Both the position numbers and the translations under genes were made by a program. DNA of 64,000 bases from a virus (taxonomy: Duplodnaviria > Heunggongvirae > Uroviricota > Caudoviricetes): the IMG/VR virus record IMGVR_UViG_2519899835_000003; one strand, 5' to 3'. The notes beneath the pieces are model-generated. The model ran no database searches and had not been told where the DNA came from. It saw only the letters and a list, made by a program, of their open reading frames with translations. Below, piece by piece: positions 57,187 through 62,323 of this stretch; the stretch's first letter is position 1, and the number at the start of each line of letters is the position of its first letter.

Positions 57187-57427
57187 AAATTCACTCTCCT
57201 TACGGGGTTTGTAGTTGAGGAGTTCTCCACGGGTGAGGTGGAGATCGTGCGCCGGACACGGGTGAGTTCCTGCACTCTCAGTTTACTGAACAGACATTAC
57301 CCTGAAAGCCAGGGTACTACACGAAAGCGCGAGGCGAAGACTCTTTCCCATAGAAGGATTGTCGTTAGATTTCTTCGACCGTGCGCTTCCGGTTGTGAAT
57401 AACAACATTGCTGTGTGTAACCCTTGG

Positions 57428-57465
57428 CGGATATCGGTTTGCCGATTGCTGATGTCCGCCCTTTT
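57428..57465 (+). terminator. Candidate rho-independent terminator inside the early-left operon (tL-like; approximate)
   Basis: GGCGGA..ATCGG-TTTG-CCGAT..TCCGCC compound hairpin followed by CTTTTT. Confidence 0.4.
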
Positions 57466-57642
57466 TAAAGTGAATTTTGTGATGCGGTGAATGCGGCTAT
57501 GCGCACGCGGAACAGTTAAACCGACAGGATGTCACGGAAAGTCATCGTCCCCTGACCCGGCGTTAGTTGTTAACTGGTTAACGTCACCTGGAGGCACCAG
57601 GCACCGCATCAACAAAGTTCATTTGTGAAAATGGAGATAATT

Positions 57643-57864
57643 ATGATTGCTCATCACTTCGGAACTGATGAAATACCACGTCAGTGCGTGACGCCTGGCG
57701 ATTATGTTCTTCATGAAGGTCGGACATATATCGCTTCAGCAAACAATATTGAAAAGAGAAAACTCTATATTCGTAACTTCACAACAAAAACATGCATTAC
57801 CGACTGCATGATTAAAGTTTTCATCGGGCGCGATGGCTTACCCGTAAAAGCAGCGTCGTTGTGA
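57643..57864 (+). CDS. KilR-like host-killing/cell-division inhibitor peptide (73 aa)
   Basis: [32 protein letters not shown]... recalled as matching Rac KilR; GGAGA RBS; upstream of the RecE-like gene as in Rac. Confidence 0.5.
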
Positions 57865-57947
57865 CGAGTAATAAAATACACCTTCCATATCTGTAACAGA
57901 CAAGCCGAAATAAAACCGCATTAATTATCAATCACGGAAAAATCAAA

Positions 57948-58334
57948 ATGAAAGAACTTGCGCAAAATGAAATATTTTCCAAAACCAGTCCTGATGCAAT
58001 AAATGAACTCAAAGAAATTGCAGAACGCATCAGTAAAATATGCAAAGAATACAAAATCGACTTTGTATTTTCTTTTTCAGTGCTTACAGAAGTTGGAAAT
58101 AACGAATATAAGGACAGTCGTTTTGTTTTATGTGGGTTAAATGGCAAAACACCAAGCCCATATATTCATGCTGCACGTGAAGTTGTCAGAAGCAACATTG
58201 GAGTACAACAAATCCATACACTTGCACAGGCTCTTGAGTTTGCAAGAGAAAATTCTGAGTGCGACTGCCCTGAATGCCAGCACGAAAAGGGAAAAACAAC
58301 TCACAAAACAGCAAACCAGGCAACCTTCCACTGA
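57948..58334 (+). CDS. Hypothetical protein with C-terminal CxC...CxxC motif
   Basis: 128 aa; ...ENSECDCPECQHEKG; occupies the racC/ydaE position of Rac-type operons. Confidence 0.45.
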   Translation: MKELAQNEIFSKTSPDAINELKEIAERISKICKEYKIDFVFSFSVLTEVGNNEYKDSRFVLCGLNGKTPSPYIHAAREVVRSNIGVQQIHTLAQALEFARENSECDCPECQHEKGKTTHKTANQATFH

Positions 58335-58441
58335 AATAAAAATCCGGCAGCGCAGGCTACCGGATTTCTCCCTGCGTCACCGTATTCGGAGAAATCAGAC
58401 AAAGGGTCGCTAATTCTAATCCAGCCAGAGGTTTAAATACA

Positions 58442-60514
58442 ATGAGCGCTGATAAACAGACTTTTGCACTACACTGCGAAGCAAAAAACGATAAAGTCAG
58501 AAAACGCCTTGGCATCAAAGGCGGTTTTTTCTGGACCGAGGCCAGAAAACTTTCTGTCGCAGTTTCCCGCTGCATTGCAGCCATGGACGATGCAGGCTAC
58601 GACGAGGATGATTTCAAAAAACCCGTTCGCGTAAATTTCCCCGTCGTGAATGACCTTCCACCGGAAGGCGTGTTTGATACTGAATTCTGCAACCGCTATG
58701 AAAAAGGCGGTAACGATGGCATCACCATGATGGCTATCCCCTTCGATGACAACATCAACGGTGAAGATGCCACAACTGCTGGCGATGACAACGATAACCT
58801 GGACGGAACTATTCCGGATGATGTGGAGAAAAGCGAATCCCCGGACAGCGACGATGACTGTTCTGAGTGTGAAATTCCCGTCGCCACTCTGAGCCTTACT
58901 CATCGCTTCCTTCACCTCTTCTTATTCAGCAAAGATGAAGATGGAAAATACCGGCATCATGCCACACCAGAACAACGCAATAACGTGATCCGTATGGAGA
59001 TGGACACAGAGGACAGTTACCTTCAGAGCCTGCTTACTGCTGTGCGCGCCGCGCATCATGAACTGGATAAACTGACGAACTATCACCTTAGTCGCCTGGC
59101 TGAATCTGTAGGGAAAGCATTCCCCCACTCTGCAAATCATCGCATCAGCCCGGCTGAATTCGACAAGTTCATTTCCACCTGGATGAAAACTGACTACCTT
59201 GATCAGGGCCTGCTGACAAAAGAATGGCAGAACGGAAATTATGTTTCAGGCATTACCCGTACGCCTTCCGGTGCTAACGCTGGCGGCGGAAATATTACCG
59301 ATCGTGGTGAAGGATTCAAACATGATAAGACATCACTCGCACGAGATGTAGCCACCGGCGTTCTGGCCCGTTCAATGGATGTGGATATTTATAACCTGCA
59401 CCCAGCACACGCAAAACGCGTTGAAGAAATCGTGTCAGAGAATAAGCCGCCCTTTTCTGTTTTTCGCGACAAATTTATCGCCATGCCCGGTGGGCTGGAT
59501 TATTCCCGCGCCATTGTGGTGGCTTCCGTGAAAGAAGCACCAATCGGCATTGAGGCCATCCCGGCACGCGTGACTGAATATCTCAACAAAGTGTTGACCG
59601 AAACCGATCACGCTAACCCGGATCCGGAAATCGTGGAAATTGCCTGCGGTCGCTCATCAGCACCGATGCCGCAGCGCGGAACAGCAGAAGGAAAACATGG
59701 CGATGAAGAAAAGCAACAAACATCGGACACAATGGCTAATGAACAGGCAGCGCCTGAATCAGTGGAAGAAATTCCAGTTAAACATAATGAGGACACGCAA
59801 TCACTGGAAAATGTCTCATCTGTAGAAACGAAATACCAGGAACTGAGGGAGGAACTCAATAAAGCCAGGGAAAACATCCCCCCAAAAAATCCAGTCGATG
59901 CCGACAAATTACTGGCTGCCTCGCGTGGAGAATTCGTTGAAGGCATCAGTAACCCTGCTGATCCGAAGTGGGTGAAGGGGATCCAGACTCGCGACACTGA
60001 GGACCAGAATCAGCCCAAAGTGGAACAAATTGCCCCAGAAGCGGGACAAAACAGCCCGGATACGCAACAAAACGGGCCAGAAGAGCAACAGCCAGGGCCA
60101 GTAATGCAACAGGAAGTGGAAAAGGTTTGCACCACATGCAGTCAGAACGGTGGCGGCCATTGCCCTGACTGTGGTCCAGTAATGGGAGATGAAACTTACG
60201 CTGAAACTTTTGGAGAAAATGACGCCGCTGATGGAGAAGACTCAGCACAAACTGAGGAGAAGATCATTCAGGAAAACTCTGTTGATGCCGCTCAGGAGGG
60301 CGAAACCGTTGTTCAGAACGAGCCAGGCAGTGATACGTCCGGCGATGACGCCAATTCTGAGCCAGTAACTCTCGACTGGAAAAGACAGCTCGTGATTGCC
60401 GCCGTCTATGGTTTGTGCGCCAACCCCGCATGTATAGCCACAGCGCCAGCAATCCCTGATATCGCCATCATGATTGCCAACAGGCTTGAAAATTTCGAAG
60501 GTGATAAATCATGA
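58442..60514 (+). CDS. RecE (exonuclease VIII) N-terminal-region homologue lacking the C-terminal nuclease domain (690 aa)
   Basis: Blocks [82 protein letters not shown]...[32 protein letters not shown] recalled as colinear with the dispensable N-terminal ~600 aa of Rac RecE; ORF ends 4 bp into gam. Confidence 0.55.
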
Positions 60515-60807
60515 ATGCCTGGCTTATCCCCGATCGCATTGAAGAGCAGTCATGGGCACGACACTACCAGCAAATTGCCCGTGAAGAAACTGAAGCTGAG
60601 CTGGCAGACGACCTGGAAAAAGGTCTGCCCCAACACCTGTTTGAATCGCTATGCATCGATAATCTGCAACGTCACGGGGCCAGCAAAAAAGCTATTTCCC
60701 GTGCATTTGATGACGATGTCGATTTTCAGGAACGCATGGCAGAACACATCCGCTACATGGCTGAAACCATCGCCCGTCACCAAATTAATATTGATTCAGA
60801 GGTATAA
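60511..60807 (+). CDS. gam: Gam (RecBCD inhibitor), short form
   Basis: [26 protein letters not shown]...[26 protein letters not shown] is near-identical to lambda Gam. Confidence 0.85.
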
Positions 60808-60812
60808 AACGG

Positions 60813-61598
60813 ATGAGTACAGCACTCGCAACGCTGGCAGGGAAGCTGGCTGAACGTGTCGGCATGGATTCTGTCGACCCACAGGAACTAATCACCACTC
60901 TTCGCCAGACGGCATTTAAAGGTGATGCCAGCGATGCGCAATTTATCGCATTGTTGATCGTCGCCAACCAGTACGGCCTTAATCCCTGGACGAAAGAAAT
61001 TTACGCCTTCCCTGACAAGCAGAACGGCATCGTTCCGGTGGTTGGCGTTGATGGCTGGTCCCGCATTATCAATGAAAACCAGCAGTTTGATGGCATGGAC
61101 TTTGAGCAGGACAATGAGTCCTGTACATGCCGGATTTACCGCAAAGATCGCAATCACCCGATCTGCGTTACCGAGTGGATGGATGAATGTCGCCGCGCAC
61201 CATTCAAAACCCGCGAAGGCAGAGAAATCACCGGACCGTGGCAGTCGCATCCCAAACGGATGTTACGGCACAAAGCCATGATTCAGTGTGCTCGCCTGGC
61301 CTTCGGATTTGCTGGCATCTATGACAAGGATGAAGCCGAGCGTATTGTCGAAAATACTGCATATACTACAGAACGTCAGCCGGAACGCGACATCACCCCG
61401 GTTAACGAAGAAACCATGTCGGAAATTAACGCCCTTCTTACTTCCATGGAAAAAACGTGGGATGACGACCTGTTGCCGCTCTGTTCCCAGATTTTTCGCC
61501 GCAACATTTACACATCTTCAGAACTAACACAGGCTGAAGCTGTGAAGGTTCTTGGATTCCTGAAACAGAAAGTCACAGAGCAGAAGGTAGCAGCATGA
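60813..61598 (+). CDS. bet: Bet (Red-beta single-strand annealing protein)
   Basis: [48 protein letters not shown]... essentially lambda Bet. Confidence 0.9.
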
Positions 61599-62272
61599 CA
61601 CCGGACATTATCCTGCAACGTACAGGGATCGACGTGAGAGCTGTCGAACAGGGGGATGATGCGTGGCACAAATTACGGCTCGGCGTCATCACCGCTTCAG
61701 AAGTTCACAACGTGATAGCAAAACCCCGCTCAGGAAAGAAATGGCCTGACATGAAAATGTCCTACTTCCACACCCTGCTGGCTGAGGTTTGCACCGGTGT
61801 GGCTCCGGAAGTTAACGCTAAAGCGCTGGCCTGGGGAAAACAGTACGAGAACGACGCCAGAGCCCTCTTTGAGTTCACTTCCGGCGTGAATGTTACTGAA
61901 TCCCCGATCATCTATCGCGACGAAAGTATGCGCACCGCTTGCTCTCCCGATGGTTTATGCAGTGACGGCAACGGCCTTGAACTGAAATGCCCGTTTACCT
62001 CCCGGGATTTCATGAAATTCCGGCTCGGTGGTTTCGAGGCAATAAAATCGGCTTACATGGCCCAGGTGCAGTACAGCATGTGGGTGACGCGAAAAGATGC
62101 CTGGTACTTTGCCAACTATGACCCGCGCATGAAGCGTGAAGGCCTGCATTATGTCGTGATTGAGCGGAATGAAAAGTACATGGCGAGTTTTGACGAGATG
62201 GTGCCGGAGTTCATCGAAAAAATGGACGAGGCACTGGCTGAAATTGGTTTTGTATTTGGGGAGCAATGGTGA
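61595..62272 (+). CDS. exo: Exo (Red-alpha 5'-3' exonuclease)
   Basis: [68 protein letters not shown]... essentially lambda Exo. Confidence 0.9.
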
Positions 62273-62323
62273 TAGCCAGTAGCAACGAGGTGCAAATGAT
62301 ATGACAATTAAGGAATACTACCG

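Follow-up and report, generated by a model that had tools for sequence, protein, structure and literature searches.

What does the N-terminal region of RecE do when it is encoded without a nuclease domain, directly upstream of a lambda-type gam-bet-exo cassette? The question is raised by a locus in a 64,000-nucleotide (nt) stretch of DNA from a Caudoviricetes virus (IMG/VR record IMGVR_UViG_2519899835_000003), hereafter the window, in which an open reading frame (ORF) of 690 amino acids (aa) with an ATG start occupies positions 58442-60514 on the + strand. A first-pass annotation, made from the letters of the window, had read this ORF as the N-terminal, recombination-dispensable part of the RecE protein of the Rac prophage, joined to a lambda cassette and retained for a function of its own. 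From sequence comparison we conclude that the ORF is a nuclease-less, functional member of the RecE family, and that it is an undescribed variant in which the unexplained N-terminus of RecE exists as a free-standing, selected protein coupled to Gam. Because the gene is present in public databases under a misleading name, as a RecE-family member, the finding is not categorically new.

RecE homology, the hinge and the C-terminal module

Profile searches placed the ORF in the RecE family and located the end of the homology before the nuclease domain. Against NF007259, the NCBIfam equivalog model for exodeoxyribonuclease VIII (877 positions), ORF residues 1-637 align to model positions 1-598 only; positions 599-877 are unmatched, and the score of 740.4 bits lies below the curated cutoff of 1269. 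PHROG 607 covers the ORF over profile positions 1-617 of 883, and a Pfam search returned PF06630 (E=1.8e-12) only, with no match to the nuclease domain PF12684. By BLASTP, the ORF matches Rac RecE of Escherichia coli K-12 (b1350, 866 aa) with E=5e-178 and 51% identity, ORF residues 51 to ~600 aligning to RecE 43 to ~555, and identity in the core (aa 266-410), judged by eye, is close to 90%. These results bear out the initial reading of the ORF as a RecE N-terminal region without nuclease. We also looked for a nuclease domain displaced into an adjacent frame: RecE residues 564-866 gave no tblastn match in any of the six frames of the window (best E=0.4), and a simple frameshift of the nuclease domain is therefore excluded. 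Sequence and profile searches of PDB found no match to the ORF, though the RecE nuclease domain is in PDB, and neither did searches of the PADLOC models. The genes downstream are gam and lambda-type bet and exo, not a cognate recT. Because the catalytic domain is absent, double-stranded DNA 5'-3' exonuclease activity is not expected of the ORF product.

The end of the RecE homology was located by aligning the nuclease-less proteins with the full-length RecEs of Rac, P0115 (1049 aa) and P0120 (915 aa). Homology continues past a zinc-ribbon-like CxxC-x7-CxxC motif (Cys 563, 566, 574 and 577; 60122-60211, + strand) into an acidic linker, which in Rac RecE ends at a hinge at residues 581-585 (DETGE). 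In one lineage (L004, L010 and P0123) the linker tracks Rac RecE as far as DETGE and then switches to a different C-terminus, where Rac runs on as VADPVIVEDIEPGIYYG into the nuclease. With a slash between the hinge and the residues that follow it, the junctions read DETGE/VADP in Rac and DEAGE/TTAP in the long nuclease form L020, NETGE/ATDP in L008, which carries a DEDDh exonuclease domain, and DETGE/AAASSLEKLDWKRQ and NETGE/DELNWKKQ in two forms with the alternative C-terminus, L004 and L026, respectively. The arrangement indicates that the ORF is a domain replacement and not a simple truncation. Where the first-pass annotation had the ORF stop at the nuclease boundary, the frame in fact runs on through an acidic linker (aa 591-643) into a conserved orphan module of 47 aa (aa 644-690; 60371-60511, + strand), which stands in place of the nuclease domain and is absent from full-length RecE. 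The idea that the N-terminal region was retained alone is thus right as to the loss of the nuclease and wrong as to what took its place, and the label 'recombination-dispensable' is half true only. The zinc-ribbon-like motif, which had been taken for a new tail, lies in the region common to Rac RecE and is therefore not a novelty of the ORF; its four Cys residues are conserved without exception in 13 aligned sequences, Rac RecE among them. Compared with Rac RecE overall, the ORF shares the colinear core, the block at aa 461-520, the CxxC-x7-CxxC motif, the acidic linkers and a position 3' of kilR in an early-left operon, but differs in its first ~45 residues, in having the 47-aa orphan tail instead of the PD-(D/E)XK domain (~586-866 in Rac), and in being followed by gam-bet-exo where Rac recE is followed by recT.

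Every nuclease-less member ends in a module of ~47 aa, for which we found four sequence types. An HMMER scan of 1.84 billion representative proteins with this tail returned seven matches, six of which are C-termini or fragments of the family and the seventh a repetitive protein of 1245 aa. Within 50,697 phage records the tail was found only in the four phages that carry the ORF. None of the reading frames of the Rac, lambda, long-RecE and DEDDh loci matched it, and comparisons of the tail profile with Gam, Bet, Exo, RecT, the RecE nuclease, AAA_24 and lambda kil, cIII, ea10 and ral were likewise negative; for Gam, hhalign gave a probability of 0.3%. A likeness between the tail and core residues 351-363 (shuffle p~0.04) is missing in two of the tail variants and was put down to chance.

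The RecE N-terminal region (RecE-N) is also found with other C-termini. Two such loci, L008 and the Citrobacter locus L009, were obtained by a genome-contig scan, which used overly specific peptides and returned four loci. L008 encodes an 812-aa protein in which the RecE N-terminal blocks, zinc ribbon, linker and NETGE hinge are followed by an Rv2179c-like DEDDh 3'-5' exonuclease domain (PF16473, E=2.7e-67), and Qin/DicB-type prophages carry, between ydfD and xis, an 823-aa DEDDh 'exonuclease' that lacks a neighbouring annealing protein. These RecE-N::DEDDh fusions of 812-823 aa lie at 6001-8439 in L008, 4269-6740 in L018 and 4266-6737 in L019. The contig of L008 (JAGZPX010000007.1) is labelled as a metagenome-assembled genome of Veillonella parvula, yet it carries an E. 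coli-type lambdoid prophage end with the fusion gene and an integrase, and the label is probably a binning error. The fusions resemble the ORF in the N-terminal blocks, zinc ribbon, acidic linker and hinge; they differ in the C-terminal DEDDh domain, in a divergent core allele, and in that no gam or annealing protein adjoins them. Of 5426 complete E. coli genomes, 4051 (~75%) contain the stretch of DNA that runs from the zinc ribbon through the linker and the DEDDh domain. In the full-length forms (Rac, P0115 and Citrobacter L009) the same N-terminus is joined to a PD-(D/E)XK domain and paired with RecT. Among them the long RecE P0115 of DicB-type prophages is, by alignment, the closest full-length relative of the ORF and likely a recent recombination partner for its N-terminal part, because identity between the two is 87% over ORF aa 1-611 and nearly complete over aa 121-520; P0115 differs in having PF12684 after the hinge, followed by a 350-aa RecT. 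One hinge thus leads into three kinds of C-terminus (a 5'-3' exonuclease, a 3'-5' exonuclease and the 47-aa tail), which argues that RecE-N is a portable, exchangeable module.

Selection, spread and linkage to gam

We examined selection on the ORF by pairwise Nei-Gojobori estimates of the ratio of nonsynonymous to synonymous substitution rates (dN/dS) on eight family members. Over the whole ORF the ratio is 0.18-0.29, with values of 0.04-0.2 in conserved blocks and 0.35-1.4 in acidic and low-complexity linkers. The most conserved segment is the RecE-N core (aa 266-410; 59237-59671, + strand, as are all segments listed here), which contains a G-rich loop (SGANAGGGN), is near-invariant relative to Rac RecE and has a dN/dS of 0.06-0.14 at a synonymous divergence (dS) of 0.24-0.91. 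The N-terminal block (aa 1-100; 58442-58741), common to the long RecE P0115, the DEDDh fusion of L008 and the Citrobacter RecE of L009, gave 0.04-0.20; the block at aa 146-265 (58877-59236), which is helical only in a low-confidence model, gave 0.13-0.21 among close members; and the block at aa 461-520 (YQELR...; 59822-60001), kept in all RecE types, gave 0.05-0.13. The orphan C-terminal module shows 0.09-0.17 at dS 0.2-1.9. Between these blocks lie acidic linker 1, of low complexity and with a net charge of -17 (aa 101-145; 58742-58876; dN/dS 0.75-0.9), acidic linker 2 (aa 411-460; 59672-59821; 0.5-1.4), a Q/P/E-rich low-complexity stretch that is rich in indels in the alignment (aa 521-560; 60002-60121; 0.1-0.74), and a hypervariable acidic linker with a net charge of -15 (aa 591-643; 60212-60370; 0.35-0.65), the counterpart of which in RecE ends at the hinge (D/N)ETGE. 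Since dS is high (0.2-1.9) in the constrained blocks, it is the encoded protein that is constrained, rather than some overlapping DNA signal. The reading frame is intact in the window and in eight aligned relatives, and the gene does not qualify as a pseudogene. Overall, these values indicate purifying selection on the N-terminal blocks as well as on the tail, and hence a functional protein; the front part of RecE appears to work without a nuclease of its own.

The family comprises more than 110 protein clusters (680-700 aa, 77-99% identity) that carry PF06630 only, and members as distant as 77% identity still measure 671-700 aa. A search of 5426 complete E. coli genomes found DNA of the tail in 106. 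The window is itself of E. coli: copies identical to the ORF occur in E. coli FORC_069, FORC_043 and NCCP15648, with 99.7% identical copies in the O104:H4 outbreak lineage. Viable phages whose deposited genomes are complete also have the gene (PhiR5_2, Shigella 75/02 Stx, POCJ13 and phiSTEC1589-Stx1c). Low dN/dS, constant length and carriage by viable phages all agree with the earlier suggestion of an independent function for the retained region. For a single pair of genes, dS ranges from 0 to >1.8 depending on the segment; the gene itself is therefore mosaic and still exchanging pieces with full-length recE. We found no literature on this architecture or on the function of PF06630, YdfE or the DEDDh fusion. 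In RefSeq the product is named 'RecE family exodeoxyribonuclease' despite the absent nuclease domain, and the RefSeq/PGAP annotation flags intact ORFs as pseudogenes ('incomplete; missing C-terminus') in L004 (3147-5162, 671 aa) and L026 (2722-4662, 646 aa), the annotated feature ending before the tail.

In 12 of 12 loci inspected, gam lies 3' of the tail at a distance of -23 to +2 nt. The commonest order is KilR, (YdaE), 128-aa protein, RecE-N with tail, Gam, Bet and Exo, and the phages that have it differ, where their flanks were inspected, in immunity region and in attachment site (ynfG and the wrbA/yccJ side are among the sites). Three loci have another order, in which the gene after RecE-N with tail and Gam encodes an AAA_24 ATPase of 365 aa that may be a Sak4-like recombinase, and bet and exo are missing: L026 (2722-6039), in which the RecE-N ORF is intact at 646 aa, L023 (1906-4815), in which the core has an internal deletion, and L005 (4353-7671), which has a frameshift. 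As these loci keep gam in the absence of bet and exo, it is gam, and not Exo or Bet, that consistently accompanies the tail.

The operon and its prophage context

The ORF occupies a position in the early-left operon of a lambdoid prophage, preceded by a cI-like repressor gene, an N-like gene, a KilR-like gene and a gene for a 128-aa protein, and followed by gam, bet, exo, a DUF4222 gene and an integrase gene; the sequence AGAGG is found 11 nt 5' of its start. DNA homology to Rac comprises 57381-57878, 59184-60029 and 60092-60210, and homology to lambda runs from 60532 to 62273. The proposed mosaic joint of Rac-type and lambda-type modules is supported by this change from Rac blocks, which extend to 60210, to lambda DNA from 60532 onward. 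On the lambda side, gam (60511-60807, + strand) encodes the short, 98-aa form (PF06064, E=4.8e-65), bet (60813-61598, + strand) a protein of 261 aa (TIGR01913, E=2e-49) and exo (61595-62272, + strand) a protein of 225 aa (PF09588/YqaJ, E=2.9e-30), so that the neighbours make up a lambda Red/Gam module in the lambda order. 'Lambda-identical', as the cassette had been called, overstates the match: identity is 92.6% at the DNA level, and 83.7%, 94.3% and 98.2% at the protein level for Gam, Bet and Exo, respectively. Lambda differs in having kil and cIII 5' of gam and no RecE-related gene, and in the window the first ~20 nt of gam and all of the DNA upstream are unrelated to lambda.

The ORF and gam are closely joined. 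The stop codon of the ORF (60512-60514) overlaps the gam ATG (60511-60513) as ATGA, the 4-bp overlap that had been noted before, and the Shine-Dalgarno sequence of gam, GAAGGTGA (60497-60504, + strand, read from the sequence), lies inside the last codons of the tail; in relatives GGAGGTGA occupies the same place. The first ~14 codons of gam (60511-60552) are unlike the common E. coli gam, and in most genomes megablast homology begins at ~60553. These codons vary along with the type of tail, partly owing to a gene overlap of 4-23 nt. We have not used this co-variation of the Gam N-terminus and the tail type as evidence, the two being adjacent, co-inherited and partly overlapping DNA.

Upstream of the ORF, the KilR-like gene (57625-57864, + strand) encodes a Rac-type FtsZ inhibitor of 79 aa (NF008465, E=5.6e-46) with 90% aa identity to Rac KilR, and the DNA at 57381-57878 is 83% identical to Rac kilR/kilS. 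The gene that follows (57948-58334, + strand) encodes the 128-aa protein, to which no function is assigned; it belongs to phrog_2016 (E=1.9e-78), has a C-terminal CDCPEC motif, and had no match to Rac RacC or YdaE. The description of the operon as Rac-like upstream consequently holds for KilR and fails for this CxC protein. It is the constant neighbour of the RecE-N gene on the 5' side, since six further loci (L002, L010, L012, L015, L016 and L017) also have a gene of 128-130 aa directly before the one for nuclease-less RecE. ORFs of 107-113 aa that are weakly akin to the 128-aa protein precede RecE-type genes in L024 (E=1.5e-4) and in Citrobacter L009 (5517-5858, by eye). Scans for promoters and terminators and of Rfam gave nothing informative. 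Between the 128-aa gene and the ORF, at 58336-58366, there is a hairpin with a T run (AAATCCGG-CAGCGCAGGCTA-CCGGATTTCTCCC), which the consensus scan did not report and which may be a terminator that is read through under N antitermination.

The surroundings can be seen in L025 (FORC_069 2468000-2500000, corresponding to ~32000-64000 of the window, reversed), where the prophage is integrated in ynfG and has a backbone and late region like those of Stx phages. A SASA/NanS-p esterase gene follows Q, and no stx gene is annotated within the 32-kb stretch examined. The prophage also carries hokD, a Doc-family toxin, and a RelE/ParE toxin with a helix-turn-helix partner.

Possible roles of the free-standing N-terminus

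The N-terminus of RecE has no known function, but full-length RecE improves linear-linear recombination (PMC11611040, PMC11610958). In addition, RecET linear assembly is indifferent to Gam, an observation taken as an argument for a Gam-like activity in RecE (bioRxiv 10.1101/2022.01.13.476211). With these reports in mind, the account that we favour, although we would stop a little short of calling it probable, is that RecE-N has a nuclease-independent function at linear DNA ends that is exerted here in trans, with the tail as an adaptor. RecE-N would act at linear double-stranded DNA ends by end protection, tethering or partner recruitment, and the same activity would underlie both the better end-to-end recombination of full-length RecE and the insensitivity of RecET to Gam. 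It would work in cis with either type of exonuclease, or in trans as in the window, alongside Gam and whichever recombinase follows (Bet-Exo or the AAA_24 ATPase). The tail would be a protein-protein adaptor that replaces the contribution of the tetrameric nuclease ring, either by self-association or by docking onto a partner, and Gam is the first candidate for that partner because the tail and gam are always found together. In a more specific form of this account, which as a whole we consider unlikely, RecE-N is an autonomous effector acting on DNA ends or on a host nuclease, the tail docks onto Gam or the Gam-RecBCD complex, and the resulting two-protein unit, not recognised before, protects linear ends and channels them to whichever recombinase the phage has. 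If true, this would also account for the fact that Rac RecET can dispense with Gam, and for the retention of the RecE-N fusion to a 3'-5' exonuclease in 75% of E. coli genomes.

Several points weigh against a DNA-end function in partnership with Gam. The literature holds no direct evidence of any biochemical activity of the RecE N-terminus. AlphaFold2 (AF2) modelling of the full ORF on a 19-sequence alignment gave no usable fold (mean predicted local distance difference test score, pLDDT, 33; predicted template modelling score, pTM, 0.21), leaving the ORF without a structural model, and the PDB and PADLOC searches revealed no remote homology to solved structures or to defence and anti-defence models. 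Most gam genes have no RecE-N partner, gam being present in 3177 genomes and the tail in 106, and RecE-N is damaged in two of the three AAA_24 loci (the frameshift in L005 and the core deletion in L023). The linkage of tail and gam could be a historical accident, a single ancient joint that has spread via flanking homology. Finally, if the N-terminus does have a Gam-like activity, its co-occurrence with Gam would need further explanation.

Among the alternatives, the one that fares best, and that we regard as somewhat unlikely, is that the ORF encodes a dedicated anti-nuclease or anti-defence protein, acidic and partly disordered, that would inhibit a host nuclease or a defence system or serve as a decoy for it. 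It would either complement Gam at a target other than RecBCD or neutralise a system that senses Gam or Red activity. Such a role would suit the composition of the protein, which has an isoelectric point of 4.56 and 126 Asp and Glu residues against 67 Lys and Arg, and in which four acidic low-complexity segments (net charge -7 to -17) remain acidic despite evolving fast. It would also suit the place of the gene in an early-left accessory region near Gam and KilR, as well as the Gam-like activity proposed to reside within RecE. Moreover, racC, the neighbour of recE in Rac, is a blocker of a retron toxin and RecE a retron trigger (bioRxiv 10.1101/2020.06.22.160242), so this gene neighbourhood is engaged in defence interplay. 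However, the negative charge resides mainly in the fast-evolving linkers, and what is conserved is the non-acidic blocks. The ORF matches neither Gam nor any PADLOC model or solved structure, and RecE-N is usually fused to exonucleases of either polarity, a pattern easier to reconcile with a platform for DNA-end enzymes than with a pure inhibitor.

A second alternative is that the locus encodes a RecE in two pieces, with the tail docking RecE-N non-covalently on lambda Exo (or Bet). In most loci bet and exo come next after gam, and elsewhere an exonuclease is covalently joined exactly where the tail begins. Yet the intact ORF of L026 is followed by Gam and the AAA_24 ATPase, without bet, exo or any other exonuclease, and the tail has no profile similarity to Exo or to regions of Bet or RecT; we consider this reading quite improbable.

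We give very little credence to the view that the ORF is a dead remnant, left when an exchange, illegitimate or homologous, swapped the nuclease domain and recT for gam-bet-exo, with the frame kept open so that upstream ribosomes can support the translation of gam. The position of the gam Shine-Dalgarno sequence within the last codons and the overlap of start and stop are what this view would predict, some copies are flagged as pseudogenes by PGAP, and those of L005 and L023 are indeed damaged. The view is nevertheless largely refuted by dN/dS: every structured block stands at 0.06-0.2, with dS reaching ~1.9, while the linkers are near neutral, which points to a domain-wise constraint on the protein and not just to a frame held open. 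In addition, full length is maintained down to 77% identity, the supposed pseudogenes of L004 and L026 are intact, and conservation of the tail extends well past the ribosome-binding site. Equally hard to credit is membrane tethering, in which the hydrophobic tail would be a C-terminal anchor or re-entrant hairpin at the inner membrane: the 19-residue Kyte-Doolittle maximum of the protein (1.75, above 1.6) does fall in the tail, at aa 650-668 between the flanks WKRQ and NRLE, but the additive Hessa value of +3.7 kcal/mol is unfavourable for insertion because of a central invariant Asn-Pro, and the segment has Asp and Pro in its second half and is rich in Ala rather than in Leu, Ile and Phe.

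These comparisons bear on annotation as well as on biology, since nuclease-less proteins are at present named exonucleases and intact genes are called pseudogenes. Together with the DEDDh fusion, the ORF presents RecE-N as a portable module that is swapped at one hinge. The N-terminus of RecE, some 560 residues, has been called 'of unknown function' for decades, and it is what makes full-length RecET the preferred tool for linear-linear direct cloning (PMC11611040, PMC11610958). The gene family described here would be a natural separation-of-function allele, in which the N-terminus alone is kept under selection in inducible, genetically tractable phages (PhiR5_2 and 75/02 Stx), and the question of what RecE-N does is thereby open to direct test.

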